Source: an uncultured Chloroflexia bacterium (lineage in GTDB: Bacteria > Chloroflexota > Dehalococcoidia > DSTF01 > JALHUB01). From it: a stretch of DNA of 64,000 nt. Location: contig OY970386.1 in assembly GCA_963719465.1 (NCBI GenBank), forward strand, positions 981,789-1,045,788. The letters are read 5' to 3'. The notes beneath the pieces were generated by a model. The model had not been told where the DNA came from, did not search any database, and was given only the letters and a program-made list of their open reading frames with translations. Below are positions 8,847-55,342 of this stretch, in pieces. Position 1 is the first letter of the stretch, and each line of letters begins with the position of its first letter. A program made the position numbers and the translations under genes.

Positions 8847-9597
8847 TTATTCGATGGCGAAGACGACCTGCACGGTGATATCGACGTCGAGCTGGCCCGT
8901 CTCGATGGGCGTCGACGGCCCGGCACCGGTAGCGGCGCCGAGGGGTGCCATGGCCGGCACGGGCTGAACGTTCGTACCCTCTGAGATGGATATCGGCGCG
9001 CCGAGCTTAACGCCCGCCGTATCGGCGATGCGCTGGGCGCGGGCCTTCGCGTCGGTCACCGCCTCGCCGCGCGCCTGGTCTTGCAGCGTCTCCGGGTTGT
9101 CGATGGTGAAGGTTATGCCCTGTACCTGGACGATGTCGCCGCCGGCCGCCGTCACGTCGTCGAGCACCTTGCTCGTGTTGTCGAACGTCGCGCACCTTGA
9201 CGGTCACTGTGTTGGTCACCCGATAGCCGATCAGCTTCGGCGTTCCGCTCTGCGGGTAGCTGTACTCCGGGGAGATGTCGTACTGGGTCGTCTGGACGTC
9301 CTTCTCATCGACGCCGTCGTTCTTGATGGCGTTGACGACGTTTTGCATGGTGCTGGCCGCATCGTCGCGCGCGTCCTTGACCGTCGCCTTCACCGTGCTG
9401 ACGCCGAGGCTCAACACGGCGGTGTCGGGAACGCCGCTGGCCTTCCCTTCGCCGCTGACGGTGATCCCCTGAGGGGTCGAGCCGCTGTCGGTGGCGGCGA
9501 GGCTCACCTTTTCCGTGCCGCAGGCGCTGCCCAGGGCCGCGAGCAAGCCGAGCCCGAGCAGGCCGACGATTCCGATGTACTTGCTGTTCTTGTTCAT
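8847..9597 (-). pseudogene. SIMPL domain (DUF541/BP26-like) secreted protein, frameshifted
   Basis: N-terminal part (signal peptide, MNKNSKYIGIV...RVTNTVTVKVRDV) is in ORF 9007..9678 and the C-terminal part (TFDNTSKVLDDVTAAGGDIVQVQGITF...) is in ORF 8847..9167. A one-base frame change sits near 9165-9175. AAGGAGAA RBS before the ATG at 9597. Confidence 0.75.
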
Positions 9598-9619
9598 GGC
9601 TGTTCTCCTTCTGAGATAC

Positions 9620-10729
9620 TTATGAGTGCCGGTTTGTCCGTATCCAACAACGTCGCATCCAAAACGCGGAAATGCCAAGGCCGACGAACAGGCCGCCGCC
9701 GATGCCCTCGAGGAGCCACAGCCACAGGTGCGACGACCCCTCGTTCGTCAGCTGGGTTCCAGCCGTCGTCGGCGGGACGCCCGCGGACCCGCCGCCGCTG
9801 GAGGAAGCCGGCCCATTACCCGCGAACGCTTCTTGCGCCGGCGTCGGCATCCCTTCGGACGGCGTGCCTGCGGCGGCCGCGCCGAGTGGCAGAGCCGGCG
9901 TGCCCACCTCCGGCGGCGTCCCCTCCGCGGGAGGCATCCCCGGCTCCCCGACGGGCGGGGGCGGAGCGAACGGCGTGCCCGCTGCCGGCGGCGTCCCCTC
10001 TATGAGAGGCATTGCCGGCGTCCCTCCGGGCGGGAGCAAACCAGACGGCGTGCCTGGAGGCTCCGACGTGACGACGGGCGGCGGCAGGAGCCCCGAGGAC
10101 TCGGCCCCCGGGCTCGTCGCGGTGCCTGGTGTGGCGGGAGGGACGGCAGTCTCGCCCAGGTTGTCGGCCTGTGTGGCCAGCGGAGTCACGGGGGGGACTA
10201 CTCCCGCCACACCAGGCACCGCCTTCGGCTCGTATTGGGGAGTGCCTTCGGCCTGGAGACTGCCGTTCTCCTCCAGAGGCCCTTCTTTGGGGGCCGCGGC
10301 CATCGACTTCTGTGAGGAAGCGGCGGGGACGGACGCCGGTCCACCTCCCTGCCCGCCGCCGCCCGAGACCACAAGATCGGCGCCGAGGGCCACGACGAGC
10401 ACCAGCGCGGCAACAACCGTCGCGCCGCTAAGGCCGAGGTATGCCCACTTCGCGGCCTTTGCCTGCCTGGCGACCTCCGATTCTCGCCGGCGACGCGCTT
10501 CTCCTAGCAGCTCCGGCGACAGCGCGAACGACCGCGGCGCTTTTGCTTCCGGCAGAGCGTTCAGCGTCGCCACGAGCTGCCGCAGCTCATCGAGCCGCTG
10601 GGCGCAGCCGGCGCAGGATCGAAGGTGCGCTTCAACGCGCGGGCGCTTCGACTCGGGAAGGGCTCCGTCGAGGTAGGCGGACAGATCGCTTTCATCTACC
10701 GGATGGCGGCCAAATGCAAAGAGCCTCAC
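9620..10729 (-). CDS. anti-sigma factor, zinc-finger (HxxxCxxC) type, with Pro-rich low-complexity region and C-terminal TM
   Basis: 369 aa. N-terminal HLRSCAGC zf-HC2 motif, a TM helix, and a long GTP/PA-rich repeat region. Sits directly downstream of the ECF sigma factor. Confidence 0.75.
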   Translation of the reverse strand: MRLFAFGRHPVDESDLSAYLDGALPESKRPRVEAHLRSCAGCAQRLDELRQLVATLNALPEAKAPRSFALSPELLGEARRRRESEVARQAKAAKWAYLGLSGATVVAALVLVVALGADLVVSGGGGQGGGPASVPAASSQKSMAAAPKEGPLEENGSLQAEGTPQYEPKAVPGVAGVVPPVTPLATQADNLGETAVPPATPGTATSPGAESSGLLPPPVVTSEPPGTPSGLLPPGGTPAMPLIEGTPPAAGTPFAPPPPVGEPGMPPAEGTPPEVGTPALPLGAAAAGTPSEGMPTPAQEAFAGNGPASSSGGGSAGVPPTTAGTQLTNEGSSHLWLWLLEGIGGGLFVGLGISAFWMRRCWIRTNRHS

Positions 10730-13005: not shown

Positions 13006-13080
13006 GGGCCGTTAGCTCAGCGGCAGAGCTCCGGACTTTTAATCCGGGAGTCGAGGGTTCGAATCCCTCACGGCCCTCCA
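13006..13080 (+). tRNA. tRNA-Lys (anticodon TTT), CCA encoded
   Basis: 75 nt cloverleaf. Acceptor GGGCCGT/ACGGCCC, D-arm GCTC..GAGC, anticodon stem CCGGA/TCCGG with loop CTTTTAA, T-arm GAGGG-TTCGAAT-CCCTC, then CCA. Confidence 0.9.
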
Positions 13081-14706: not shown

Positions 14707-15600
14707 CTACCAGGCAGGGCCAGTGTCGACCACGCTATTGTGTGTCAGCCTCGTCTGATCGCTGCCATCGGCGTTCATTATGTAGATCTCGTCGTTGCCG
14801 TCCCGGTCGCTCGCAAAGGCGATCTTGGCGCCGTCGGGCGACCACGTGGGAAAGACGTTGTTCCCCAGGTCGTTGGTCAAGTTCGTCTGGCCGCTGCCGT
14901 CGGGGTTCATCACGTAGATCTCCTCGTTGCCGTCCCGGTTGCTCATGAAGGCGATCTTCGAGCCATCGGGTGACCAGGCGGGCAGGGCATCAACACCCGC
15001 ACTGTGGGTCAGATTCTTCTGGCCATTGCCGTTCGCCTTCATCACATATATCTCGTCGTTGCCGTCCCGGTCGCTCGTGAAGGCTATCTTGGAGCCGTCC
15101 GGCGACCAGGCCGGGACCTGATCGTTCGCTGCGTTGTTTGTGAGCCGAGTCTGACCGGCGCCGTCAGCGTTCATCACGTAGATCTCGTCGTTGCCGTTTC
15201 GGTCGCTCGTGAAGGCGATCTTCGAGCCGTCAGGCGACCAGGTTGGCAAGATATCGTTCGCGCCGCTGTCGGTGAGCCGCGTCACGTTGCTGCCGTCGGC
15301 GCTCATGACGTAGATACTGAAGGCGCCGTCGCGGTTGCTCTCGAAGGCGATCTGCTTCATGTCCGGCGACCAGGCAGGGGAAGTATCATCCGCGGTGTTG
15401 TCCGTGAGGCGGGTCTTCGGGCCGGCGGCGTCAGCATTCATCACATAGATCTCTAAGTTGCCGTCCCGGTTGCTCACGAAGGCGATCTTGGCGGTGTGCC
15501 ACGACACGCAGCCGGACAGAAGGAAAGGCAGGACAGCACCAATAAGAACAGGAATAACCAACCTATAGCGGGGACGGCTCCTTCCGTTGAACATATCCAT
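14707..15600 (-). CDS. TolB-like PD40 beta-propeller lipoprotein (copy 1 of a tandem pair)
   Basis: 297 aa. LSGC lipobox followed by ~6 PD40 repeats ([27 protein letters not shown]). Near-identical to the next gene. Confidence 0.75.
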
Positions 15601-15643: not shown

Positions 15644-16537
15644 CTACCAGGCAGGGTCAGTGTCGACCACGCTATTGTGCGTCAGCCGCGTCTGATCGCT
15701 GCCGTCGGCGTTCATGATGTAGATCTCATCATTGCCGTCCCGGTCGCTTGTGAAGGCGATCTTGACGCCGTCGGGCGACCAGGAGGGAAACATGTCGTTC
15801 CCCGGGTCATTGGTCAAGTTCGTCTGGCCGCTGCCGTCGGGGTTCATCACGTAGATCTCCGCGTTGCCGTCCCGGTCGCTCATGAAGGCGATCTTGGAGC
15901 CGTCGGGCGACCAGGTGGGCATCAAGTCATCAGCGGCACTGTCGGTCAGGTCAATCTGGTGATTGCCATTCGCGTTCATCACGTAGATCTCCTGGTTGCC
16001 GTTCCGGTCGCTCATGAAGGCGATCTTGGAGCCGTCGGGCGACCAGGTGGGGTGCCGATCGCTCGCTGGGTTGTTGGTGAGCCGAGTCTGGCCGGTGCCG
16101 TCGGCATTCATCACGTAGATCTCGTCATTGCCGTCCCGGTCGCTCGTGAAGGCGATCTTGGAGCCGTCGGGTGACCAGGCGGGCATCTGATCGGTTGCGC
16201 CGTTGTTGGTGAGCCGAGTCTGACCGCTGCCGTCGGCATTCATCACGTAGATTTCGCCGTTGCCGTCCCGGTCGCTCGTGAAGGCGATCTGCTTGCCGTC
16301 CGGCGACCAGGCAGGGTAGATATCAGCCGCGGCGTTGTTGGTGAGACGGGTCTTCGGGCCAGCGGCGTCAGCGTTCATCACATAGATCTCTTGATTGCCG
16401 TCTCGGTTGCTCGTAAACGCGATCGTAGCGGTGCGCCATGACACGCAGCCGGACAGAAGCAAAGGCAGTACGGCGCCAAGAACAAGGGCAATGATTAGCC
16501 GATGGGGGGAACGGCTCCTTCCGTTGAACATATCCAC
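15644..16537 (-). CDS. TolB-like PD40 beta-propeller lipoprotein (copy 2 of a tandem pair)
   Basis: 297 aa. Same architecture as copy 1. The ~937-bp tandem duplication includes the upstream leader. Confidence 0.75.
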   Translation of the reverse strand: MDMFNGRSRSPHRLIIALVLGAVLPLLLSGCVSWRTATIAFTSNRDGNQEIYVMNADAAGPKTRLTNNAAADIYPAWSPDGKQIAFTSDRDGNGEIYVMNADGSGQTRLTNNGATDQMPAWSPDGSKIAFTSDRDGNDEIYVMNADGTGQTRLTNNPASDRHPTWSPDGSKIAFMSDRNGNQEIYVMNANGNHQIDLTDSAADDLMPTWSPDGSKIAFMSDRDGNAEIYVMNPDGSGQTNLTNDPGNDMFPSWSPDGVKIAFTSDRDGNDEIYIMNADGSDQTRLTHNSVVDTDPAW

Positions 16538-18755: not shown

Positions 18756-19724
18756 ATGAAGGCAGCAGTCTACTACGAAACCGGCCCGCCCAGCGTCTTC
18801 CGATACGAGGACGTGCCGAACCCGCAGTGCCATCCGAGCGGCGTCCTCATCGACGTGAAGGCCGTGAGCATAGAGGGCGGCGACATCCTCAACCGGGCAA
18901 TGGGCGTGATGGCTTCGCGGCCGCACATCGTGGGCTATCAGTGCGGCGGCACGATCCGAGAGGTCGGCGCCAACGTCAGAGACCGTTTCGTCGGCCAGCG
19001 GGTCGTGGCCACCGGCCCCTACGGCTCGCACGCGGAGATCTTCTCAGCGTCGGCCCGCGCTACCTGGCCAGTTCCAGAGGGCCTGGAGCTGGAAGTGGCG
19101 GCCTGCGTGCCGATCCCCTTCGGAACGGCCGACGACTGCCTCTTCGAGTTCGGGCATCTGCAAGCCGGCGAAACGGTGCTGATCCAGGCGGGCGGCGGTG
19201 GCGTGGGCCTCGCGGCGATTCAGCTCGCGAAAAGGGCGGGCGCGACGGTCCTGGCGACGGCTTCGACTGACGAGAAGCTGGAACGGCTGCGTGAGTTCGG
19301 GCTGGACCACGGCATCAACTACGCGCGCGACGACCTGGTGGAAGCCTGTCGAAGGCTGACCGGCGGCAAGGGCGTGAACCTGGCTATCGATTCCGTCGGC
19401 GGCAAGACGCTGGAAGATAGCGTCAGGAGTCTTGCGTACAGAGGGCGGGTGATCAGCATCGGTCAGACGGCCCGCGCCCCCAGAAAGCCGGACGTGGCGT
19501 TCCTCATGGAGGGCAATCGCTCGTTGACGGGCATGGCTTTCAGCGTCGAGATGGCGGTGAATACGGAGCACGCCAGGAACCTCGTCTCGCGACACCTGGA
19601 AGACGTGGCGGCAGGGAGCTTGCGGGTCGTGATCGATCGCACGTTTCCGCTGTCGGAAGCGGCGGCCGCGCACGCCTACATCGAAAGCCGCAAGGCCTTT
19701 GGCCGCGTGCTCCTGATACCGTAA
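18756..19724 (+). CDS. NADPH:quinone oxidoreductase / zinc-binding alcohol dehydrogenase family (MDR)
   Basis: 322 aa from the ATG at 18756, with GGGAGGAG RBS. Starts MKAAVYYETGPP and has a Rossmann motif GGGGVG. Confidence 0.85.
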   Translation: MKAAVYYETGPPSVFRYEDVPNPQCHPSGVLIDVKAVSIEGGDILNRAMGVMASRPHIVGYQCGGTIREVGANVRDRFVGQRVVATGPYGSHAEIFSASARATWPVPEGLELEVAACVPIPFGTADDCLFEFGHLQAGETVLIQAGGGGVGLAAIQLAKRAGATVLATASTDEKLERLREFGLDHGINYARDDLVEACRRLTGGKGVNLAIDSVGGKTLEDSVRSLAYRGRVISIGQTARAPRKPDVAFLMEGNRSLTGMAFSVEMAVNTEHARNLVSRHLEDVAAGSLRVVIDRTFPLSEAAAAHAYIESRKAFGRVLLIP

Positions 19725-19879
19725 CAACCCCACGCGTCTGCGGACGATCTGTAACAAATTGCACGGGCCCAACGGCTCAAGGCCTTTGCCCGCGTGCCGA
19801 CTCTCTAGGTAAGATGCGGTGAGTCGCGCTGGCGACGGCCGCAAATCCACGACATTTGTTCCATATAAGGAGGTGTAAC

Positions 19880-36148: not shown

Positions 36149-37426
36149 TTGCTGTATTTAGGAACGATCGACCAGAAGACCGCGCCTGTCGCGGTGCGGG
36201 AGCGTTTCGCGTTCTGCGCCGAGGAAGTGGAGCGCGCGCTCGCCCGTCTACGAAGCGAGCTGGGCAGCGGCGTCATCCTTTCGACCTGCAATCGCACCGA
36301 ACTCTACATCGACGCTCCTGCTGGCCGCGACATGCCGGAGCAAATGCTTTCGTTCTTGGCGGACGCGAAGGGGCTCGCCGAGGGGCTGTTCGACGACCGC
36401 TTCCATTTCTATCAGGATGCCGACGCGGTCCGCCACCTGTTTCGCGTGACGGCCGGCATCGAATCGCAGGTGCTGGGCGAGGCGGAGATACTGGGACAGG
36501 TGCGCTCGGCGTTTACCGCTGCCACCGACGCTAACTCGACGACGCCCTACCTGGCGCGGCTCTTCCACTCGGCCATTCGCGTCGGCCGCCGCGCCCGCAG
36601 CGAGACGGAGATCGGCCGCCACGGCCTGTCGGTGAGCGCCGCAGCCGTCGCTCTGGCGCGCAAGACGCTGGGCAACCTTTCGGAGCGGTGCGCCCTTGTG
36701 ATCAGCGCCGGCGAGGCGGGGAAGCTGACCGCGCACGCTCTCCAGGACTGCGGCGTCGGGCGAACGCTGGTGGTGAGCCGCCGCTTCGAGCGCGCCGAGC
36801 AACTGGCGACGGAGCTTTCCGGCGAGGCGCTGCCGCTCGACCGCCTGAGCGAGGCGCTGGCGACGTCGGACATCGTCATCACCTCTTCCGGTTCGCCTTC
36901 GTTCATTATCGACTGCAATCTGCTGGAACAGGTCATGCCGCAGCGGAACGGCTCGCCGCTGCTGCTCATCGACATCGCGGTGCCGCGGGACGTGGAGCCG
37001 GCAGTGCGCGATTTCGGCGGTGTGTACCTGTACGACATCGACGACCTGCAGTCGGTAGCCGAAGCGAATCGCCGGGCGCGGCAGAAGGAGTCGCCTGCGG
37101 TGGAAGCGATCGTCGAAGAGGAGGCGCAGCGCTTCCTCGATTGGTCGCGCTCGCTGGCGGTGGTGCCGACGATAAGAGCGATCCGCCGCTACGCGGAGCG
37201 AATTCGCCAGGACGAACTGGCAAAGACGCTGGCGCGCCTGCCCGACCTCTCGGACGAAGAGAAGCAGCGCATCGACAGCCTCTCGGAGGCGATCGTGAAG
37301 AAGCTGCTCCATCGCCCCATTTCCCGCTTGAAGGCGAAAGCCGGCGGCACGGCCGTCCTTGAATCGGCGCGCCAGCTTTTCGGAACCGACGAAGCGCCGG
37401 GCCGGCGGGACAGGCCGGACTCCTGA
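36149..37426 (+). CDS. hemA: glutamyl-tRNA reductase
   Basis: Family motifs ILSTCNRTELY and the NADP-binding and dimerisation domains. Confidence 0.9.
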   Translation: MLYLGTIDQKTAPVAVRERFAFCAEEVERALARLRSELGSGVILSTCNRTELYIDAPAGRDMPEQMLSFLADAKGLAEGLFDDRFHFYQDADAVRHLFRVTAGIESQVLGEAEILGQVRSAFTAATDANSTTPYLARLFHSAIRVGRRARSETEIGRHGLSVSAAAVALARKTLGNLSERCALVISAGEAGKLTAHALQDCGVGRTLVVSRRFERAEQLATELSGEALPLDRLSEALATSDIVITSSGSPSFIIDCNLLEQVMPQRNGSPLLLIDIAVPRDVEPAVRDFGGVYLYDIDDLQSVAEANRRARQKESPAVEAIVEEEAQRFLDWSRSLAVVPTIRAIRRYAERIRQDELAKTLARLPDLSDEEKQRIDSLSEAIVKKLLHRPISRLKAKAGGTAVLESARQLFGTDEAPGRRDRPDS

Positions 37427-37430
37427 CACG

Positions 37431-38351
37431 ATGACGGGCAGGACGCTGATCGTAGGGACGCGAGGCAGCCGGCTGGCCCGCCGCCAAACGGAAATCGTGA
37501 TCGAGGCGCTCCGGCAACGCCATCCGGACCGCAACTTCGAGATTCGCACCGTCACAACCACCGGCGACCGGCGTCCGCAGCCGCTCGCCGAGATCGCCGG
37601 CGAGGGCGTGTTCACGAAAGAACTCGAAGAGGCGCTCCTTCGTGATGAGATTGACATGGCGGTCCACAGCCTCAAAGACCTGCCGACGCAGCTTCACCCA
37701 CAGCTCGCGCTGGCGGCCGTGACGGCCCGCGAAGACGTGCGCGACGCGCTGGTCTCGGCCGGCGGCCAAACGCTGGCCCGGCTTCCGGCGGGAGCGCGCA
37801 TCGGCACGGGCAGCGTCCGGCGGGCCGCGCAGATGCGCCTCTTGCGACCCGGTATCGAAGCGGTGCCGATCCGCGGCAACGTCGATACGCGCCTCGCCAA
37901 GGTGGGCGGCGATGAGATAGACGCCGTGATCGTGGCGGCGGCGGCGCTGGCAAGGCTGGGTCGCCTCGACGCCGCGGCCGAGCTGCTACCGCTGGAGGCG
38001 ATGCTGCCGGCGCCCGGCCAGGGAGCGCTGGCGGTCGAGACGCGGGCTGACGATACCGAGGCGCGCGAGGTCGCGTCCGCCGTCGATGATGACGATACGC
38101 ATCGGGCGACGACAGCGGAGCGGGCGTTTCTGCGACGGCTCGGCGGCGGCTGTCGCGTGCCGGTCGCGGCGTACGCGACGGTCGAAACCGGCGGACTGCG
38201 CCTTCGAGGGCTGGTCGTGGAGCCGGACGGCACGCGCGCCTACCGCGGCCAGATTGACGGCCCCGCGGCGGAAGCGGAAGCTCTGGGAGAACGCCTGGCC
38301 GAAAGGCTGCTCTCTGAAGGCGCTTCAAGAACGCTCGAAGGGATCAGATGA
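37431..38351 (+). CDS. hemC: hydroxymethylbilane synthase (porphobilinogen deaminase)
   Basis: Family motifs LIVGTRGSRLA...TTGD and the dipyrromethane cofactor Cys (GGGCRVP). Confidence 0.9.
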   Translation: MTGRTLIVGTRGSRLARRQTEIVIEALRQRHPDRNFEIRTVTTTGDRRPQPLAEIAGEGVFTKELEEALLRDEIDMAVHSLKDLPTQLHPQLALAAVTAREDVRDALVSAGGQTLARLPAGARIGTGSVRRAAQMRLLRPGIEAVPIRGNVDTRLAKVGGDEIDAVIVAAAALARLGRLDAAAELLPLEAMLPAPGQGALAVETRADDTEAREVASAVDDDDTHRATTAERAFLRRLGGGCRVPVAAYATVETGGLRLRGLVVEPDGTRAYRGQIDGPAAEAEALGERLAERLLSEGASRTLEGIR

Positions 38352-39883
38352 AGAACGCGAGCGGCAAGGTCTGGCTCGTCGGCGCGGGACCCGGCGACCC
38401 CGGGCTGATCACGGTCAAGGGCGTCAACGTCCTGGCCCGCGCGGAGGTGGTCGTCTATGACCGGCTGGTCGTCCGCAGCCTCGTCGAGCTGGCGCCGGCG
38501 AAGGCGGAGCGCATCTTCGTCGGCAAGGACCCGACGAGGAAGGGCGGCTCAGGCTTCAGCCAGCAGGAGATAGACGATCTGCTCGTCGCCAGGGCGCGCG
38601 AGGGCAAACGGGTGGTCCGGCTCAAGGGAGGCGATCCGTTCGTCTTCGGACGGGGCGGCGAGGAGGCGGAAGCGCTCGCGGACGCCGGCATCCCCTTCGA
38701 GGTGGTCCCCGGCGTGTCGTCGGCCATCGCGGCGCTCGCCTACGCGGGCATTCCGGTGACGCATCGCGGGCTGTCGTCGTCGTTCACGGTGGTGACCGGC
38801 CACGAGGACCCCGATAAGCCCGAAAGCGCGGTCGACTGGAGGCGCGTAGCAAATAGCGCCGATACGCTGGTCATCTTGATGGGCGGCTCGAATATCGGCG
38901 AGATCATGAAGCTTATCTCCGAATGCGGCCGAGCGCCCGATGACCCCGCCGCCGTTGTACGATGGGGAACCACGCCAGATCAGGCAGTAATCGCGGTAAC
39001 CATTTCTGATTTGGCGAAGCGCGTCGCCGAGGCCGGGCTGGAGCCACCGCTCGTCACGGTCGTCGGGCCGGTCGTCGGCCTGCGCGACAAGCTGCGCTGG
39101 TTCGACAACCGTCCCCTCTTCGGCAAGCACGTTCTGGTGACCCGCGCCGCTGAACAGGCCGGCGTCCTCTCGCACGCCCTGGCCGAGGCGGGCGCGGAGC
39201 CAATAGAATTGCCGACGATCGAAATCGTACGGCGCATCGACCAGAAGGCCCTGCGCAGCTCGCTGCAACGCCTGGAAGCGGGCGAGTACGACTGGCTCGT
39301 CTTCAGTAGCGCCAACGGCGTCGACATCTTCTTCGACGAGCTGCGGCGCCGCAAGAAGGACGCCCGCGTGCTGGGTCGAGCCTCCGTCTGCGCCATCGGC
39401 CCGGCGACGGCGACTGCGCTTGCCGAGCGCGGCGTCCACGCCGACGTGGTGCCGGAGCGCTTCCTTGCGGAAGGCATCGTCGAAGCGCTGACGGAGCGCG
39501 GTATAATGGGGCAGCGCGTCCTCTGGCCCCGGGCCCGCGGCGCCCGTCGAGCGCTGGTCACCGGGCTGGAGCGCTTGGGCGCAATGGTCGACGAGCTGCC
39601 GCTGTACAGCGCCGCCGTGCCGAAGCAGGTCGACGCCGAGGCGATGGCGCGGCTGCGCGCCGGTGAAGTCGACATCGTGACGTTTGCCAGCTCTTCGGCG
39701 GTGCGCAACCTGCTTAAGATGCTCGACGGCGACAAGGCGCCGCTGGAGAAGCCGCTGATCGCCTGCATCGGGCCGGTGACGGCGACCGCAGCGCGTCGAG
39801 CGGGCCTGCGCGTCGGCGTCGAAGCGCCGGATCATACTATTGAAGGCTTGCTGGCCGCGCTGTCAGACCACTTCGAAAGATGA
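38348..39883 (+). CDS. cobA-hemD: uroporphyrinogen-III C-methyltransferase / uroporphyrinogen-III synthase fusion
   Basis: N-terminal SUMT domain ([15 protein letters not shown]) and a C-terminal HemD domain. Confidence 0.9.
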
Positions 39884-40554
39884 CGCCTGGTTCCAAGAGA
39901 CAACCTGTCGCAACTGACGACGAAACGGCGAAGAGGCAGCGCCGCGTTCGCCGCCTGTACTCCCTGGTTGCCGGCATATACGACCTTCGCGTCGGCACGT
40001 TCCTGCGCTGGCGGAAGCCCGCCCTCGAGGCCCTCCGGCCCAACGCGGGGGACAAGGTGCTGGACCTGGCCTGCGGCACCGGCCTCAACTTCAGCCAGAT
40101 CCTGGCGCGGATTGGCCCTAAGGGCAGGATCGTTGGCTTGGACATTACCCGCCCTATGCTGAAGCGCGCGAGACGAAGGGCAGATCGCAGTCATTGGGAA
40201 AACGCCACCCTCGTCGAAGGCGACGCCACCGACCTGCCACTCGCCGCCGACTCCTGCGACGCCGTGCTCTGCTCCTACGCCATGGCGATTATTCCCGACT
40301 ACCGCACGGCGATAGCGGAGGCGGTCCGCGTCCTCAAGCCCGGCGGACGGCTCGTATTGCTGGAGCCGAAGCGCGGCTCGACCCTCTGGGGCCGGTTGCT
40401 GACTCCGCTGGTGGCGCCTTCTGGCGTCGGCATCGTCCACCTCGACCGGAGAGCGTGGGAGGAGCTACCCGCACTTCTGGAAGACGTTTCGCGACGTGAC
40501 TATGCGGGCGGGCTGGTGTACATTGCCAGTGGCACGAAAGCGAGGGACCGGTGA
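39880..40554 (+). CDS. class I SAM-dependent methyltransferase (UbiE/COQ5-like), inserted within the hem cluster
   Basis: Motif I VLDLACGTG and GGRLVLLE. Flanked by two diverged copies of the cobA-hemD 3' end. Confidence 0.75.
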   Translation: MTPGSKRQPVATDDETAKRQRRVRRLYSLVAGIYDLRVGTFLRWRKPALEALRPNAGDKVLDLACGTGLNFSQILARIGPKGRIVGLDITRPMLKRARRRADRSHWENATLVEGDATDLPLAADSCDAVLCSYAMAIIPDYRTAIAEAVRVLKPGGRLVLLEPKRGSTLWGRLLTPLVAPSGVGIVHLDRRAWEELPALLEDVSRRDYAGGLVYIASGTKARDR

Positions 40555-40672
40555 TGGCAGCCGCGGCGCGTGGCGCGGGCCCGCGCATAGACGTCGGAGC
40601 GCCTGAGCACACGGTCGAGGGGTTGCTAGCGGCGCTGGAATTTGCATATGCCGAAACGAAGGGGGCCATGAA

Positions 40673-41032
40673 ATGGGGTTGACAACCATCGAGCTCGAAA
40701 TCGCCAACGTCGCCGATCCTGAACAGACCGAGAGGTTAGAGTTTCTCATCGATTCCGGTGCCATCTACTCCGTCGTGCCGGCAGTTGTGCTACAGCGGCT
40801 CGGCATAAAACCGATAGCGCAGCAGGACTTCCGGTTGGCTGACGGGACAAAGATCTCGCGCCGGAAAGGCGTAGCCCTTTTCCGATACCAAGACAAGATC
40901 GGTGGTGCCGACGTTATCTTCGGCGAGGAGGGCGATGCGACGCTGCTTGGCGCGTTCACTCTCGAAGCGCTTGGCCTCGGTCTAGACCCGTTGAAGCGGG
41001 AATTGCGTGATCTCCCCATGATGCTTGCATGA
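40673..41032 (+). CDS. retropepsin-like (clan AA) aspartic protease, single-domain
   Basis: 119 aa. The LIDSGA catalytic D-S-G-A motif and its length match bacterial retropepsin-like proteases. Confidence 0.65.
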   Translation: MGLTTIELEIANVADPEQTERLEFLIDSGAIYSVVPAVVLQRLGIKPIAQQDFRLADGTKISRRKGVALFRYQDKIGGADVIFGEEGDATLLGAFTLEALGLGLDPLKRELRDLPMMLA

Positions 41033-41043
41033 AAAGGTAACCT

Positions 41044-42018
41044 ATGAACGGTGACGTTCGTCGATTTCGGCGGCTGCGGGACAGCAACTCAATGCGGCGG
41101 CTCGTGCGGGAGACGAGGCTTTCCCCGGAGGACTTCGTCTACCTGCTGTTCGTCGTGCACGGCAGCGGCGTTCGTAACGCCATCCCATCGATGCCGGGCC
41201 AGTCGCAGCTCTCCGTCGACCAGCTTGCCGCCGAGGCGCGCGAGCTGCGCGAGCTCGGCATTCCCGCCGTCCTCCTCTTCGGCATACCGGCGTCGAAGGA
41301 CGAGCAGGCGTCGGAGGCATACGCGCCGGACGGCATCGTCCAGCAGGCGGTCCGCGCCCTCAAGCAGGCCGACCCGGAACTCCTCGTCATCACGGACGTC
41401 TGCCTCTGCGAGTACACAAGCCACGGCCACTGCGGCATCGTCAAGAACGGCGACGTCGATAACGACGCCACGCTGCCGCTGCTCGCCAAGACGGCGCTCT
41501 CGCACGCCCAGGCCGGCGCCGACATGGTCGCCCCGTCGGCGATGATGGACGGCCAGGTGTCGGCCATCCGCGGGGCGCTCGACGAGAGCGGCTTCTCGCA
41601 GACGCCGATCATGGCCTACGCCGCCAAGTACGCCTCCGCCTTCTACGGGCCGTTCCGCGAGGCGGCGGAGTCGGCGCCGCAGTTCGGCGACCGCTGCGGC
41701 TATCAGATGGACCCGGCGAACGTCCGCGAGGCGTTGCGCGAGATCGAGGGCGATATCGCCGAGGGCGCTGACATTGTGATGGTGAAGCCGGCGCTCGCCT
41801 ACCTGGACGTGCTCGCCCGCGCCCGCCGGCGCTTCGACCTGCCGCTTGCCGCCTATAACGTCAGCGGCGAGTACGCTATGATTAAAGCGGCGTCGGCGAA
41901 CGGCTGGCTCGACGAGAAGCGCGTCGTTCTCGAGGTGCTGACGGCGATCAAGCGGGCCGGCGCGGACGTCATTATCACGTATCACGCCAAGGACGCCGCC
42001 CGCTGGCTGACCGCTTGA
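41044..42018 (+). CDS. hemB: porphobilinogen synthase (delta-aminolevulinic acid dehydratase)
   Basis: Active-site Lys motifs and conserved VKPA and SGEYAM blocks. Confidence 0.9.
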
Positions 42019-42057
42019 GCGCCTGCGGTGCGTCCGGTGCCAAACCTGAAAAAGCTA

Positions 42058-42899
42058 TGTCTGATCTTCCCACCCGCCCACCCGAGATGCGTTGGGATTC
42101 GGGGGACACCCCCGAACCCCCGGAAGAGAGGGATCCCCTCTCTTCACTCTCCCTTTCTCGGCGTGACGGCATTCGCGCCATCGCCTTCGACTGCTACGGC
42201 ACGCTGATCGACTTCACCGACCAGGCGTTCATCCGCGCCTACCACGAGATCTGCGTTCAGCAGGGCATCGCCTGCGACGGCCGGACGCTCTGGGAGAAGT
42301 GGATGGACATCTGGCGGCGCATGTCGTCCGTGGTCAGCGACTATGAAAGTCCGCGCAACGAGCCCACCTCCTGGACCCGCACGATGGCTAGCTTCCGACC
42401 TTATAGTGAAGCCTGGCCGGAGCATTTCGAGGCCTGCTTCCGCGAGCTCGGCGTTCGCGGGGACGGCGTCGCTGCCTACGCGCACGTCCGCAACGGACTG
42501 GCAGACGCGCCGGCGTTCGCGGAAACGGCCGAGGTGCTGTCGGCGCTGAAGTCGCGCTACCACCTGGGCATCCTCTCCAACGCCGACGACGACTTTCTGA
42601 ACGCCTGTCTCGAGAAGAACGGCCTGCACGTCGAGTTCCAGCTCATCGTCACGTCCGAGAGCGCGGGCGTCTACAAGCCGCGGCAGGAGATATTCCACTC
42701 GTTCGTCGAAGCGAGCGGCTTCCAGCGACACGAGGTGCTATACGTTGGCGACAGCCAGTCGGCGGACGTGCTGGGCGCCAAGAACGCGGGCCTGCCCGTA
42801 GCCTGGGTCAACCGCGACGGTTCGCCGCTCAGGGAAGGCGTGCCGCAGCCAGACCACGAAGTCGCCTCGCTGCGCGAGCTTCTCGGAATCTTATCGTAG
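42058..42899 (+). CDS. HAD-superfamily hydrolase (haloacid dehalogenase type II-like)
   Basis: Motif I FDCYGTL, motif III K and motif IV GDSQSAD. The true start is probably downstream of the repeat element, so the N-terminal Pro-rich extension is doubtful. Confidence 0.7.
42064..42140 (-). repeat. dispersed GC-rich hairpin repeat, copy 2 of 3 (inverted)
   Basis: Its reverse complement aligns with copies at 30976 and 53123 (ATCTTCCCACCCGCCC...GGGGGACACCCCCGAACCCC). Lies just 3' of the hemB stop and overlaps the annotated N-terminal extension of the HAD ORF. Confidence 0.65.
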
Positions 42900-42907
42900 C
42901 CGGGACT

Positions 42908-44245
42908 TTGCAGTTTCGGCGCCGGTCCGTTTCGACCCGGGTCGATGGAATGATGCCGCTGTCCCATGACCGTTCGCACGAAGTCTTCCAGCGCTCGCTG
43001 CGCTACCTGGCCGGCGGCGTCGACAGCCCCGTCCGCGCCTTCCGAGCCGTCGGCGGCGAGCCCATCGTTGTCGCCCGCGGCGAAGGGCCGTACCTGTTCG
43101 ACGTGGATGGCAATCGCTACGTCGACTACGTCTGTTCCTGGGGCGCGCTCATCCTCGGGCACGCGCACGCCGCCGTCGTCGCAGCGGTCCGGAAGGCGGC
43201 GGAGCGCGGCAGCAGCTACGGCGCGCCGACGGAGCCGGAGGCCGACCTGGCGCAGCTCATCGTCGAAGCCGTGCCGTCGATTGAGACGGTCCGCTTCGTG
43301 AACTCCGGTACCGAGGCCACGATGTCGGCGCTGCGCCTGGCCCGCGCCTTCAGCAGACGCGACAAGATCGTCAAGTTCGAGGGCGCCTATCACGGGCACG
43401 CCGACGGTCTGCTCGTGCGCGCCGGCTCGGGCGTGGCGACGCTGGCCCTTCCCGACAGCCCGGGTGTGCCGGCTTCATACGCCCAGGAAACCCTCATCGC
43501 CCGCTACAACAACGTCGAGAGCGTCGAGCGCCTGTTCGAACGATACGCCGGCGAGATAGCGGCGGTCATCGTCGAGCCGGTCGCCGGCAACATGGGCGTC
43601 GTGCCTCCCCAGCCAGGCTTTCTGGCGTCGCTGCGCGAGATCACGCGGTGTGAGGGCGCGCTGCTCATCTTCGACGAGGTGATTACGGGCTTCCGCGTCG
43701 CATTCGGCGGCGCTCAGTCGCTCTACGGGATCGTGCCGGACTTGACGTGCCTTGGGAAGATCATCGGCGGTGGACTGCCGGTCGGAGCCTACGGCGGCCG
43801 GCGCGACGTGATGGCGATGCTGGCGCCGGAAGGCCCCGTCTACCAGGCGGGGACGCTCTCCGGCAACCCGCTGGCGATGGCGGCGGGACTGGCGACGCTG
43901 CGGGAGCTGCAGTCGCCGGGCTTCTATGAGCGGTTGGAGACGCTTTCGTGGAAGCTGGCGGAGGGAATTGCTGTGGCAGCCAAGCGCGCTGGCGTACCGC
44001 TTCAGCTAAATCGCGTCGGCTCGATGTTCACGCCCTTCTTCGTCGACAGCCCGGTCAGCGATTATGGGAGCGCCCGCCGCGCCGACACCGAACGCTACGC
44101 AAGCTTCTTCCACGCCATGCTGGAGCGCGGCGTCTACCTGCCGCCGTCGCAGTTCGAAGCAGCATTTGTGTCCTCAGCCCACGGGGATGAGCAGATCGAC
44201 GCCACAATCGCGGCCTTCCAGCAGGCGCTGACGGAGCTGTCCTAG
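42908..44245 (+). CDS. hemL: glutamate-1-semialdehyde 2,1-aminomutase
   Basis: Class-III aminotransferase fold with the PLP Lys motif (CLGKIIGGG). Confidence 0.9.
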
Positions 44246-44279: not shown

Positions 44280-44308
44280 TTGACAATCCCCCGTTCTGGT
44301 GCTAAATT
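44280..44308 (+). promoter_or_regulatory. sigma-70-type promoter (TTGACA-17-TAAATT)
   Basis: TTGACA at 44280..44285. TAAATT at 44303..44308, 17-nt spacer. Confidence 0.5.
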
Positions 44309-44317
44309 GCCATCAGG

Positions 44318-44498
44318 CCTAGCTCGTCAGTCGCGGTGGGCGGCGACGAGACGGGGGAACCGAAGGCAGCATGGGGTGTACTCGCTTGGAGCGAGAGGGC
44401 AGTCTCTTTCAGCCCTAACCCGACAGCTAACCTCGTAGGCCACTGAAAGAGGGCTGGTTCCAAACAAGGCGGCCGGAGCCAACTCCTCCGGCTTTTTT
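44318..44498 (+). promoter_or_regulatory. candidate cyclic-di-AMP riboswitch (ydaO/kimA class) with intrinsic terminator, upstream of otsA
   Basis: Contains ACGGGGGAACCGAAGG, GGGGUGUACUC and CCCUAACCCGACAGCUAACCUCGUAGGC. I recall these as the conserved ACGGGGA / GGGGUGAAUCC / CCGAACCCGACAGCUAACC blocks of ydaO RNAs. A long-range closing helix (GGAACC...GGUUCC) is present. Terminator GCCGGAG-CCAA-CTCCGGC plus T6 at 44472..44498. Confidence 0.6.
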
Positions 44499-44607
44499 GC
44501 ACCCTCGTGTCCTGCCTGAATGGCGGACAGGCCCGGCCCGGTCGGTTGCGTGTATCTATATCGCTAAGGTGGGAGCGATACCCCGCGACATGCAAAAGGA
44601 GGCCGAC

Positions 44608-46191
44608 ATGGCACCTCGCGATCTCTCCGACTTTCCGCCCTTATCCGTCATCCGGCGCAGTTCAAGTCCACTCATCGTCGTCAGCAACCGCGGCCCCTTC
44701 GAGCACTATCGAGACGCCGGCGGTGTCCTGGCACGGAGGCCCACGAGCGGGGGCGTCGCCGTCGCGCTCTCCAGCATTTTCGGGCGGCAGGAGTTGACGT
44801 GGGTCGTCGGCGCTGTTGGCGATGTTGACCGCGAGCTGGCAATGCGCGACTTCCGCCGCTTTTCTTTTGGCGACGGGCATCGCCTCTGTTTCGCGTCGAC
44901 GGATTCGCACTCATACGATCTCTTCTATCGCACCTTCAGCAATCCGATTCTCTGGTTCCTGCAGCACTCGCTATGGCATCTGCTCGACGGACGGCCGAAC
45001 TTGAGGCAAGAGATCGTGCGGTCCTGGGAGGAAGGCTACGTGCCGGTAAACGCGGCCTTCGCCGCCGCGGTCTGCGACGAGATCGATGACGCGCGCGGGC
45101 CCGCCCGAGTCATGCTCCACGACTACCATCTCTACCTGGCACCACTACTCATCCGCGAGCGTCACCCGGAAGCTCAGCTCCAGCACTTCTGCCACATCCC
45201 CTGGCCGGGGCCGGAGGCCTGGCGCGTGCTGCCGGAATACGTCATCGCCCGCATCTGCGAGGGCATGCTGGCCAACGACAGCGTCGCTTTCCAGACGGAG
45301 GAATCGAAGCGCAACTTCGCGCTGACCTGCCTCGCATATCTTCCTGACACGACAGTCGATCTGGCAGAGACTGCGATCAGCCACCGGGAACGGTCGACTG
45401 GTATCTTTGCCAATCCGATATCGGTGGACGTGTTCGACCTGAGGCGGAAGCTCATCTCGCCGAAAGTGCAGGCCTACCGGCAGGCGCTGGTTGGCGAAGA
45501 TGACATAAGGACAATCGTTTGCGTCGACCGTCTGGACCCGGCAAAGAATGTCGCCGGCGCGCTGAAGGCGTTTGACCTCCTCCTTCAGCGCCATCCCGAA
45601 TGGTCGGGCAAGGTCCGGATGCTCGCCTTCCTGGTGCCGTCGCGGGTAGCGATCCCCGAGTACCAGACGTATCGGGACAAGGTCTTTACGCTCGTTGACG
45701 AGATAAACTCGCGACACGGCGACGGGCGTTGGCAGCCGCTAACGGTCTTCTACGAACAGAACCGAACCCAGGCGCTTGCCGGCTTGAGCCTATACGACGT
45801 GCTCATCGCCAACTCCATAGCCGACGGCATGAACCTTGTGGCCAAGGAAGGGCCCGTCTTGAACGGGCGCGACGGCGTCCTGGTGCTTTCGACGGCGGTG
45901 GGTGCGGCGCGCGAACTCGGCGGCGCAGCGCTGACCGTCGAGGCCGGGGACATCGAAGGGACCACCGAAGCGCTCAAACAGGCGCTGTCGATGGACGCTT
46001 CGGAGCGCCGGCAGCGGGCGCGGCTGCTGCGACAGACCATCGCGCGCCACGACATCAACGATTGGTTGGAGACGCAGATGGCGGCGTTCGGCGAACGTTC
46101 GGCGGAGATCCTTCCGGTGCCCGCATCGCTGCTCACCCGCCCGCCCTCCCGCGAGGAGCCACCCGCGCTCATCGCCGGCGGAATCTCTTGA
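44608..46191 (+). CDS. otsA: alpha,alpha-trehalose-phosphate synthase (UDP-forming), GT20
   Basis: ATG after AAGGAGG. GT20 N-terminal block VVSNRGPF and the overall length. Confidence 0.85.
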   Translation: MAPRDLSDFPPLSVIRRSSSPLIVVSNRGPFEHYRDAGGVLARRPTSGGVAVALSSIFGRQELTWVVGAVGDVDRELAMRDFRRFSFGDGHRLCFASTDSHSYDLFYRTFSNPILWFLQHSLWHLLDGRPNLRQEIVRSWEEGYVPVNAAFAAAVCDEIDDARGPARVMLHDYHLYLAPLLIRERHPEAQLQHFCHIPWPGPEAWRVLPEYVIARICEGMLANDSVAFQTEESKRNFALTCLAYLPDTTVDLAETAISHRERSTGIFANPISVDVFDLRRKLISPKVQAYRQALVGEDDIRTIVCVDRLDPAKNVAGALKAFDLLLQRHPEWSGKVRMLAFLVPSRVAIPEYQTYRDKVFTLVDEINSRHGDGRWQPLTVFYEQNRTQALAGLSLYDVLIANSIADGMNLVAKEGPVLNGRDGVLVLSTAVGAARELGGAALTVEAGDIEGTTEALKQALSMDASERRQRARLLRQTIARHDINDWLETQMAAFGERSAEILPVPASLLTRPPSREEPPALIAGGIS

Positions 46192-51670: not shown

Positions 51671-52483
51671 GTGTTGGTGGAAAGACGGGCCCGCATTTTG
51701 GGTCATATCGTAAGTGAATACGTACACACAGCGCTGCCGGTAGGTTCTGAGACCATCGTCCGCAAGTACGGCCTGCCCATCTCTCCGGCAACGGTGCGTA
51801 ACGAAATGGCGCGCTTGGAGGAGGAAGGCTACATAACGCATCCGCACACCTCCGCCGGCCGCATCCCTTCCGACATGGGGTATCGCTTCTACGTCGAAAG
51901 TCTGATGGAGGAAGAGGACCTGCCCTGGTATGAGAAGCAGTCGATCCAGAGGCGGTTGCGGATGGCGGCCAGGGCGGCTTCCGGTCGCGCTGCGCTGCTG
52001 GCGGAGCGGGCGCGAATCGCGGCCACGGTGCTGGCGGAGAGCGTGCGCAACGCCGCGGTCGCGACGGCGCCCCGTTCGCCCGGGATCGACGAAGAGGACG
52101 ACGCGCTGTACGACCGGGCTTACCTGGAAGGGCTGCGAAACGTCCTCAGCCAGCCGGAGTTCTCGCAGACGGAGGACGTCATCGACCTCGTCTGCGTGCT
52201 CGAAGAGGGCAACCTGATGCGGGCGATGCCGCTCGACAACCTCTCCGGCGAGGACGTGACCGTCGTCATCGGCGAGGAGAACCGCGAGGACGTTATGCGG
52301 CGCTGCAGCGTCGTACTGACGCGCTATGGAGTGCCGGGCACGGCCGTCGGCGTGCTGGCGGTCCTGGGGCCGACGCGGATGGCTTATTCGCGCGTCATTC
52401 CTACGGTACGTTACCTCTCACTCCTGATGGGCGATTCTCGTCGCCCAGGGCTGAGCGCCGGCCAAACAGGCGCGGGGGCAAGG
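51671..52483 (+). CDS. hrcA: heat-inducible transcription repressor HrcA (no in-frame stop; reads through into grpE)
   Basis: GTG start. N-terminal wHTH (ILGHIVSEYVHTALPVGSETIV...ATVRNEMARLEEEGYITHPHTSAGRIPSDMGYR) and a C-terminal ...GPTRMAYSRVIPTVRYL block. Continuous ORF with the next gene. Confidence 0.8.
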
Positions 52484-53107
52484 ATGTCCGAGCAAGAGAA
52501 AAACAACCAGCATCCGTCTCACGTCGACAAGCGCAGCTCCACCGGCGGCAAGCACCACGACGCCACGGAGAACCTGAGGCATCAGGTTGACGAGGCGAGG
52601 AAGAAGGCACATGAGGCGATAGGTCCGGAGGCACAGCTCGAAGAGGAGCGGAAGAAGGCGGAAGGCTACCTGGCGAGCTGGCAACGGACAGCGGCCGACT
52701 TCCAGAACTATAAACGTCGCACGGAGCAGGAGCGTCAGGAGCTGGCGCTGTTCGCCAACGCGTCGCTCATCATCAACCTGCTGCCTATCGTCGACGACCT
52801 GGAGCGCGCTCTCCAGAGCGTCGACGCGCATCTCGCCGGCCTGACGTGGGTTGACGGCATCGGCCTGATCTATCGCAAGTTCCGCGCCGTGCTGGAGGCA
52901 AGCGGCGTCAAGGAGATCCAGACGGAAGGCCAGGACTTCGACCCGCGCTACCACGAGGCGACAATGTTCGGCGAAGGCGAGGACGGGAAGGTGGTCGCCG
53001 AGGTGCAGAAGGGGTACATGCTCGGCGACCGCGTGCTGCGTCCGGCGATGGTCGTCGTCGGCCGCGGCAAGCCATCGGAGCAGCCGCCCGAAGGCCAGGC
53101 GGGCTGA
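52484..53107 (+). CDS. grpE: nucleotide exchange factor GrpE (own RBS and ATG, but in frame with hrcA)
   Basis: GGGGGCAAGG before the ATG. GrpE motifs ADFQNYKRR and the C-terminal beta-sheet domain (GYMLGDRVLRPAMVVV). Confidence 0.85.
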   Translation: MSEQEKNNQHPSHVDKRSSTGGKHHDATENLRHQVDEARKKAHEAIGPEAQLEEERKKAEGYLASWQRTAADFQNYKRRTEQERQELALFANASLIINLLPIVDDLERALQSVDAHLAGLTWVDGIGLIYRKFRAVLEASGVKEIQTEGQDFDPRYHEATMFGEGEDGKVVAEVQKGYMLGDRVLRPAMVVVGRGKPSEQPPEGQAG

Positions 53108-53212: not shown

Positions 53213-53287
53213 CAAGCGATTCATGGGGCGACAGCGCCCAGCGCTTCTTGGCATGAGAGCGCTATCATTAGATTAGATGCATCATCT

Positions 53288-53346
53288 CCAGACCGGAGGG
53301 AGCCACCATGGCGAAGGTAATCGGAATCGACCTGGGAACAATATGA
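53288..53346 (+). repeat. duplicated copy of the dnaK RBS/start (encodes [12 protein letters not shown]-stop) followed by a 20-nt perfect hairpin
   Basis: 53288..53340 is ~85% identical to 53429..53481. Hairpin CTGAGGGT-TGAA-ACCCTCAG at 53353..53372. Confidence 0.7.
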
Positions 53347-53448
53347 GCAGTTCTGAGGGTTGAAACCCTCAGCCTTTCCTGAAGCTGCGGCACTGAAGTG
53401 AGACGGAGCCGCTGACCCAAGACACATCTCCAACCGGAGGACATCATC

Positions 53449-55342
<1,894 letters not shown>

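Follow-up and report, generated by a model that had tools for sequence, protein, structure and literature searches.

A duplicated hemD 3′ end in a Chloroflexota heme operon as a probable recombination scar beside a long-resident methyltransferase gene

Arrays of displaced gene ends in type VI secretion system (T6SS) and Rhs loci have been proposed to arise by homology-facilitated illegitimate recombination (HFIR). In such sequential displacement, of T6SS effector-immunity arrays as of Rhs C-termini, homology is provided on one side by a conserved upstream gene, the joint on the other side forms illegitimately without an integrase, and behind each new insert the displaced gene 3′ ends and former downstream genes accumulate (PMC5361080). 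In the icd gene of Escherichia coli, the integrated prophage e14 (and phage 21) is accompanied by icdC, a C-terminal pseudogene, and recombination between the two copies removes the intervening segment and yields a chimeric gene (PMC13626634). Here, we describe an arrangement with likenesses to both in a 64-kb window (the whole stretch of DNA that was analyzed) from the genome of an uncultured Chloroflexota bacterium: within the heme operon, the 3′ end of an intact cobA-hemD fusion gene (hereafter hemD) recurs as a fragment, copy B, beyond a gene for a class-I S-adenosylmethionine (SAM) methyltransferase (MT).

The locus shares with the HFIR systems its nested relics of gene ends (those of hemD and of AspP, a clan-AA aspartic-protease-like gene), its joints at short microhomologies and its variable cargo downstream. 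Unlike the T6SS and Rhs loci, it belongs to a housekeeping heme operon rather than to a toxin locus, its displaced ends are tiny (25–130 nt), and only the products of the process are seen. As at icd, an intact gene is followed, beyond an intervening segment, by a diverged in-frame fragment of its own 3′ end, and by this analogy two related loci that lack both MT and copy B (L001 and L004) may be the counterpart of e14-type excision products. However, e14 spans 15 kb, encodes its own integrase and has a defined attachment core, whereas here the segment is a single conserved 675-bp gene, no integrase was found, and any core is at most 7 nt long; of the features that define the e14 type, the hemD scar retains only the in-frame replacement terminus. 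The joining of the MT 3′ end to the hemD core at 4–7 nt is like the join-points of microhomology tandem duplications and, unlike these, has no second MT copy in any locus. Integron cassettes are defined by attC border sites and an IntI integrase; no integrase was found here, and in place of attC-like sites of 60–140 nt the borders consist of relics of gene ends or of a 22-nt repetitive extragenic palindrome (REP). The closest known counterparts are the HFIR displacement scars of T6SS and Rhs loci together with microhomology duplication join-points. The process is an ordinary one and this kind of genome scar is known; the locus adds an example whose evolutionary context is well resolved.

The second copy of the hemD terminus

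The fusion gene, which encodes uroporphyrinogen-III C-methyltransferase and synthase (38348–39883, + strand), is intact by its Pfam (TP_methylase and HEM4) and NCBIfam matches, and its hemD part is complete, HEM4 covering residues 274–502. Codons ~476–505 make up the duplicated 3′ core: copy A (39773–39862, + strand) aligns in frame and without a gap to copy B (40548–40637, + strand; PVMAAAARGAGPRIDVGAPEHTVEGLLAAL), the two sharing 69 of 90 nucleotides (77%) and 21 of 30 amino acids. When the last 150 nt of hemD were compared, ungapped, with the rest of the window, copy B scored 49 and the runner-up place 18, and 30 codon shuffles gave 16.5±1.7 with a maximum of 21. The original prediction, made from the letters of the window, had reported a repeat of ~65 nt and ~75% identity at 40572..40645; the repeat and its identity hold, and its extent does not, the core reaching ~25 nt farther 5′. 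Generic composition, the alternative then named for such similarities, is contradicted by the shuffles and by ten order-3 Markov simulations of the window, none of which contained a comparable local repeat (a 20-mer with at most one mismatch, recurring within 1 kb). In the real window, such repeats occur only at qor (quinone oxidoreductase) and dnaK, besides two tandem PD40 paralogues. A scan of both termini of 53 window genes, extending the search to further cases, found duplications at hemD, dnaK and qor, the three that had been claimed, and at none of the other genes save the PD40 pair. By alignments, shuffles and simulations, all three gene-terminus duplications are real.

The 675-bp open reading frame (ORF) between the two hemD ends is likewise genuine: MT (39880–40554, + strand) is a class-I SAM methyltransferase by Pfam, is UbiE/MenG-like and falls under all NCBIfam cut-offs, and its ATG overlaps the hemD stop (ATGA). 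The order that had been described, from intact hemD end through MT to a second, diverged hemD end, is confirmed. Copy B overlaps the MT stop codon. A and B agree exactly over 7 nt at most, CCGGTGA, and this stretch is also the joint between the MT 3′ end and the hemD core (40548–40554, + strand); the TGA stop of MT comes from the hemD motif CCG GTG ACG. Copy B is contained in a 43-codon ORF (40551–40682, + strand) that is open from the MT stop to the start of the next gene, beginning GTGATG over the former and finishing 10 nt within AspP.

Related loci, designated here by L-numbers, were drawn from genomes by a scan with cobA-hemD and from metagenome contigs by a scan with MT, giving more than 50 informative loci. 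The closest genomes are metagenome-assembled genomes (MAGs) of uncultured Dehalococcoidia/Chloroflexia from peat and Danish soils, with cobA-hemD 73–88% identical, and by hemD identity to the window the relatives form clade 1 (~80%), clade 2 (~62%) and clade 3 (~50%). Copy B is found in clade 1 only, in at least 16 loci (the window, L002, L003, L005, L083, L084, L086, L087, L089–L091, L109, L115, L118, L119 and L122; L088 is identical to L087 at copy B), and its joint to the MT stop is identical each time. Across the 16 loci this joint reads ...AAG xxx CC(G) TGA CGG CGG CCA CGG CGC GT, a microhomology of 4–7 nt (GCCG/CCGGTGA) at which MT ...GAG CCG runs onto hemD GGG CCG GTG A. MT ends without the scar in L006 (...KEPGDERA, then a stop), in L093 (...KEP, then a stop) and in clade 2. 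Because all loci with copy B share the same joint, they point to one old event.

After that event, copy B has decayed. The mean identity among B copies is 63%, as against 76% at the third codon positions of MT, and 7 of the 16 copies carry a stop, frameshift or deletion, about half retaining an open frame. Because its identity lies below that of MT third positions and so many copies are disrupted, copy B is not under coding constraint; it is best read as a non-functional relic that decays about neutrally. The objection that it is too conserved for a relic was ruled out by the same comparison with third codon positions. Its divergence is about that of neutral sites across the clade that carries it, making it far younger than the residence of MT in the operon.

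The sequences closest to copy B are clade-1 hemD alleles (80–85%), often those of other clade-1 genomes rather than the copy in its own; against all A copies, clade 2 included, median identities are 45–71%. Since clade-1 alleles are nearest, copy B came from its own lineage or from one closely related to it, and judging from these identities it would date to about the age of clade 1. Beyond the core, the tails of B are unrelated between loci. In L002 and L083, copy B carries the full hemD tail and a GTAG-type REP (decayed in L083), followed by cargo, and its homology ends either at the hemD tail or at the REP. No locus examined contains a second MT copy, or remains of one, after copy B. Had B run on into hemD tail plus MT start, tandem duplication would have been demonstrated, but this similarity was significant for L003 only (p = 0.005; all others p > 0.08), and the L003 signal is driven by ATGAAGGGCG, which is maybe the cargo gene's own start. 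A candidate relic of the MT 3′ end upstream of AspP in the window (CGAAACGAAGGGGGCCA vs. CGAAAGGGAAGGAGCCA) was rejected as not significant (p = 0.12).

An older layer is probably present on the other side of MT. The segment A′ (39885–39917, + strand) aligns with L002, L003 and L006 (...CACCTGTCGCAATGAAGG in these vs. ...CAACCTGTCGCAACTGACG in the window) and, on that alignment, probably descends from an earlier hemD tail with which the original MT start once overlapped. In the window, A′ is now read as part of the N-terminal extension of MT: the old ATG has become ACT, and MT begins instead at another ATG, which overlaps the stop of the present hemD.

Age of the methyltransferase and the variable genes beside it

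MT homologues (65–89% identical) sit between hemD and hemB in all three clades, in every locus found with such a homologue whose contig extends far enough (L002, L003, L005, L006 and L082–L122). Between the window and clade 2, the MT protein is 76–80% identical, and four-fold degenerate sites agree at 48–59% against a chance level of 39%; the four-fold identities of hemD and hemB resemble those of MT. With four-fold sites close to saturation between clades and the protein still 76–80% identical, MT is an old operon resident under strong purifying selection and not a recent cassette. The original prediction had taken MT for the insert because of the two hemD ends that bracket it; instead, MT occupies the same constrained slot over three clades, and the genes that vary lie downstream of copy B. 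Recent horizontal transfer of MT or AspP between clades, for which high protein identity and the MT tree might have spoken, was ruled out by the same near-saturation, and a recombination breakpoint within hemD or MT of the window was rejected when a sliding-window comparison placed L002 and L003 closest throughout. An exact look-up of the MT protein matched only a short contig identical to the window. The function of MT is probably tied to tetrapyrrole or quinone metabolism.

In L001 and L004, MT and copy B are both missing, and cargo stands right behind hemD. The two loci nest within clade 1 at 100% bootstrap in the tree of relatives; MT was therefore lost there, as expected if A recombined with B or the allele was replaced. 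Of the presence-absence pattern at the hemD junction that an insertion would produce, then, the comparison of relatives returned two loci without MT and remnant, nested among loci that have them. In the outgroup locus L006 (7518–8169), the MT homologue is split over two ORFs in different frames and unusually diverged (61–67% identity), which reflects either pseudogene decay or a fault of the assembly.

In the window, the gene after copy B is AspP (40673–41032, + strand; 119 aa; Pfam Asp_protease_2, TIGR03698 below cut-off), and in other loci it is a DUF4145, DUF5677, DUF4268/PDC-S11 or PDC-S18 gene or one of several unknowns. The same cargo families stand directly behind hemD in L001 and L004. 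PADLOC, run on AspP and several cargo genes, matched only the PDC-S11 and PDC-S18 cargo of relatives. The third-position G+C of AspP is 0.68, compared with 0.79–0.90 in its operon neighbors, and its four-fold sites are richer in A/T, a hint that its history is different or its codon adaptation weaker. Taken over all loci (L001–L006, L009, L022 and L082–L122), the interval from hemD to hemB, and in clade 2 also that from hemB to the HAD hydrolase gene, forms a hot spot holding a MazE-PIN toxin-antitoxin pair and DUF4145, DUF5677, DUF4268 (PADLOC PDC-S11) and PDC-S18 genes. By the look of their sequences, its other contents would include a GxxExxY-type protein, a NUDIX hydrolase and, in L022, an ORF pair resembling an HTH/ImmA-type peptidase and its partner.

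In clade 2, an AspP homologue 82–84% identical to that of the window directly follows or overlaps MT (L095, L098, L100, L102, L104–L106, L108, L111 and L112; 76% over a partial match in L107). Because MT and AspP adjoin or overlap there and are separated by copy B in the window, B is the inserted piece. The clade-1 locus L082 holds a 3′ relic of AspP right behind MT. In eight loci (L082, L094, L096, L097, L099, L101, L103 and L110) such a relic, the last ~45 nt of the gene (PLKRELRDLPMMLA and a stop), is all that survives of AspP and joins the MT stop, the same CCC serving as microhomology each time. Ends of hemD have been displaced on the near side of MT as well. Six clade-2 loci have the MazE-PIN pair between hemD and MT, followed by a ~65-nt hemD-tail relic and the MT ATG, and in about 11 clade-1 loci (the L005 type) a new hemD tail (..HFKTP, then a stop) is followed by a REP hairpin, 12 nt, and a ~25-nt relic of the older tail over the MT start. 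The A′ segment of the window appears from its sequence to be a decayed version of this last relic.

REPs are associated with RAYT transposases. The hairpin seen here is GTAG-type by its sequence and predicted fold, having a 5′ GTAG and a stable GC-rich stem-loop; it reads GTAG + CCGAGAC TTTCCA GTCTCGG, and the fold reaches −16.2 kcal/mol (z = −7) in L005 and −15.8 kcal/mol in the window (42890–42930). The window copy, identified by pattern match, sequence and fold, lies at 42896–42920 (+ strand; GTAG + CCGGGACT TTGC AGTTTCGG), and further copies lie in L003 (10721–10745), L005 (1893–1917) and L002 (8263–8287), as well as in the unrelated locus L138 (1009–1165), which has a 4× tandem array with a 45-nt period. 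With its TAG, the REP provides the stop codon for the HAD hydrolase gene in the window and in L003, for hemD in the L005-type loci, and for copy B in L002 (decayed in L083). Like described GTAG-type REPs, these hairpins combine a 5′ GTAG with a GC-rich hairpin right after genes, recur at several loci and can form a tandem array; GTAG REPs are reported to give TAG stops to neighboring ORFs and to occur in Chloroflexi (PMC3733652). However, we know of no case in which REPs duplicate 20–100 nt of their target, so the REP marks borders and does not by itself explain the duplications.

Probable origin of copy B

Our preferred explanation, to which we assign a probability of roughly 0.7, is that copy B is the scar of an illegitimate or one-sided homologous recombination event next to a gene that was already resident, and not the footprint of a mobile element. 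One illegitimate event at GCCG/CCGGTGA, at the base of a species-level clade of Dehalococcoidia-like Chloroflexota, would have joined the last codons of MT to hemD codon ~476. We infer two possible routes, with different directions of transfer. By HFIR, a segment composed of hemD 3′ end, REP and cargo would have been imported from a related haplotype without MT, through homology on the hemB side and illegitimate joining at the MT end; in line with this, copy B in L002 and L083 is a full tail plus REP followed by cargo. Alternatively, unequal crossing-over could have tandemly duplicated the stretch from hemD 3′ end to MT, the second MT being later deleted or overwritten by cargo. The latter is the simplest event and needs no donor, and with subsequent decay it accounts for the main relic roughly as well as HFIR does. 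We slightly favor import, at somewhat under even odds, over tandem duplication, which we hold to be a serious though lesser contender. Neither proposed route uses a dedicated recombinase, and the "duplication-insertion events" that had been offered as an option in the original prediction come close to what the data indicate.

The survival of such scars can be accounted for by the layout of the operon. A rearrangement would be tolerated only if the upstream gene stays complete and the start region of the downstream gene is spared; because the operon genes overlap or are coupled (hemD with MT through ATGA, MT over AspP in clade 2), tolerated insertions would be those that duplicate gene ends. 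Copy B would subsequently drift neutrally, and it may serve as a homology patch for swapping the cargo downstream; functional hemD alleles seem to have renewed some of the B copies. The direct repeats would in turn allow deletion, of MT by recombination between A and B (L001 and L004) and in the short tails of L002 and L003.

Several observations weigh against a recombination scar of this kind. Among the sampled loci, there is no MT-less haplotype with the type-1 hemD tail, REP and cargo that could have been the donor for import. The tandem route is not helped by any trace of a second MT, nor by the similarity of the B tails to the MT start, which is insignificant outside L003. The B copies of L089 and L005 are closer to present-day hemD alleles than one old event predicts, which implies that gene conversion followed later or that B arose more than once, and 90 nt of core do not suffice for a robust tree of A and B copies. 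The 43-codon ORF of B is intact in the window, overlaps stop to start with both of its neighbors and could be translated. That coupled genes force the duplication of termini is, moreover, something we infer from their arrangement.

Might the gene inside the bracket have been the incoming piece after all? An MT accompanied by a replacement hemD 3′ end, recombining by homology within hemD at one end and joining illegitimately at the other, could have entered an MT-less locus composed of hemD (tail and REP), cargo and hemB and displaced the native hemD end to become copy B; no integrase would be needed, and the same joint and bracket would result. Consistent with such an import are the complete tail and GTAG-REP of B in L002 and L083, which look like a former native gene end, the affinity of B to clade-1 alleles, the existence of MT-less relatives, and an MT tree that puts clade 1 among clade-2 branches, on short internal branches. 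However, MT occupies the same position in L006, clade 2 and clade 3, and the clade-1 ancestor would have had to lose and regain it; synonymous sites near saturation between clades give no sign of recent transfer, hemD and MT of the window resemble L002 and L003 over their whole length with no breakpoint, and it is B that separates MT from AspP, its coupled neighbor elsewhere. We consider import of MT unlikely. A site-specific integrative element of the e14/icd type at the hemD 3′ end, with MT as a cargo remnant, is highly improbable; site-specific integration at gene ends was one of the options in the original prediction. The in-frame terminus, the intact upstream gene, the variable presence among relatives and the e14 precedent of icd with its icdC fragment (PMC13626634) are all what such an element would leave. 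Yet no integrase or transposase was found in Pfam scans of ~45 window proteins, and a crude Tyr/Ser-recombinase motif scan of the window and 64 loci returned one spurious match only, leaving the cognate recombinase that had been envisaged without a candidate in these sets. The joint is a microhomology of 4–7 nt with no exact core above 7 nt, although age could have eroded a longer one; the bracketed MT is conserved and has been passed on vertically with the operon, and the variable genes lie outside the bracket; and the joints at hemD, AspP, the dnaK 5′ end and qor lie in unrelated sequences, unlike those of one site-specific system.

Maintenance of copy B for a function, either as a coupled 43-aa ORF relaying translation from MT to AspP or as a regulatory RNA or DNA element, would fit its open frame in the window and in about half of the copies and its overlap with the MT stop and the next gene. 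Against this, disrupted copies are common (7 of 16), B evolves no slower than synonymous sites, its tails past the core are unrelated between loci, neither Pfam nor Rfam matches it, and the downstream gene that it would serve varies by locus; we regard a function as very unlikely. That the duplication is an artefact of assembly or sequencing has a practically negligible probability: the window does contain probable indel errors (a dnaK frameshift and a fused HrcA-GrpE ORF), but the same arrangement of MT and B recurs in independent MAGs and many metagenome contigs from different projects, A and B differ at 23% of positions, and the dnaK copies differ by seven positions within unique context.

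With the recombination scar as the favored account, a gene bracketed by two copies of its neighbor's end need not be an insert; here, the bracketed MT is the oldest resident. The locus is a small recombination hot spot, with a toxin-antitoxin pair and candidate defense genes, inside an essential heme operon, and its hosts are uncultivated Chloroflexota of soil, peat and sediment with small genomes. Scars that can be dated in this way show that tightly packed, coupled operons still gain and shed genes. For MAG annotation, such relics may be mis-called as small ORFs, and GTAG-REPs supply real stops. A bolder proposal, which we think quite improbable, is that this Chloroflexota lineage has a regular mode of cargo insertion, in which accessory genes (toxin-antitoxin pairs and candidate defense genes) are slotted between coupled housekeeping genes and the upstream terminus is regenerated each time, maybe with the aid of GTAG-REP hairpins on stop codons and of a RAYT-like enzyme, the relics acting as portable homology for cargo exchange.

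Other duplicated termini and further features of the window

The dnaK duplication concerns a 5′ end. Copy 1, a ribosome-binding site and 11 codons followed by a stop (53283–53339, + strand), is separated by an 85-nt insert of unrelated sequence (53340–53424, + strand) from copy 2 (53425–53480, + strand), which is the start of dnaK now in use; the two copies match at 50 of 57 positions. In L134, the nearest relative with the region (DnaK N-terminus 91% identical), dnaK has a single start; copy 1 of the window and its upstream flank are collinear with the L134 upstream region, and copy 2 with the L134 gene. Because L134 has a single start, the window gained 141 nt, i.e., the 57-nt duplication and 85 nt of unrelated sequence. 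The insert contains a 9-bp hairpin (CTGAGGGTT GAA AACCCTCAG), with no further copy in the window and no Rfam match.

The functional 3′ end of qor (19691–19724, + strand) encodes KAFGRVLLIP and a stop, with which the gene ends in every relative, and a relic-like second copy (19778–19808, + strand) encodes KAFARVPTL and is in frame up to its TAG at 19806–19808. The repeat itself, CAAGGCCTTTGGCCGCGTGC at 19691–19710 and CAAGGCCTTTGCCCGCGTGC at 19778–19797, matches at 19 of 20 positions. No second copy is found in the relatives L137–L141, whose downstream gene order is different too, with genes that vary from one to another. The dnaK and qor duplications are younger and lineage-specific, being absent from the closest available relatives, and from their sequence arrangement they appear to be of the same general class as the hemD scar. 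Rfam has no match at the hemD, dnaK or qor duplication sites; its matches in the window lie elsewhere, at a tRNA gene and a riboswitch.

Several genes of the window are broken in ways that bear on its sequence quality. The dnaK gene is split by a +1 frameshift at 53920–53930 (GAC GCC T GGC), with positions 1–156 and 161–598 of the HSP70 profile in different frames; the HrcA C-terminal and GrpE domains are fused in a single ORF (51671–53107); and an ABC ATPase and a SIMPL protein (3263–3808, 9007–9678) are truncated. Indel errors of long reads are a likelier cause than pseudogene formation, and L134 is split similarly.

The heme operon lies entirely on the + strand, in the order hemA (36149–37426), hemC (37359–38351), cobA-hemD, MT, the 43-codon ORF, AspP, hemB (porphobilinogen synthase; 41044–42018; Pfam ALAD), which is the conserved right border of the variable stretch, the HAD hydrolase gene (42015–42899) and hemL, which ends at 44245. 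A promoter and terminator scan of 39600–41200 gave nothing exceeding chance. The G+C content of the window is 64.5%.

Elsewhere in the window, the tandem PD40 beta-propeller paralogues (14707–15600 and 15644–16537, − strand) lie 937 nt apart, contain internal 132-nt repeats and are the source of nearly all its local repeats. The tRNA gene (13006–13077; 72 bits) is located in a stretch at 12.4–14.7 kb with few confident genes. The riboswitch is of the c-di-AMP kind (ydaO/yuaA type, 77.6 bits; 44306–44456), and it lies upstream of a family-20 glycosyltransferase gene (44497–46191) whose product is trehalose-6-phosphate-synthase-like.

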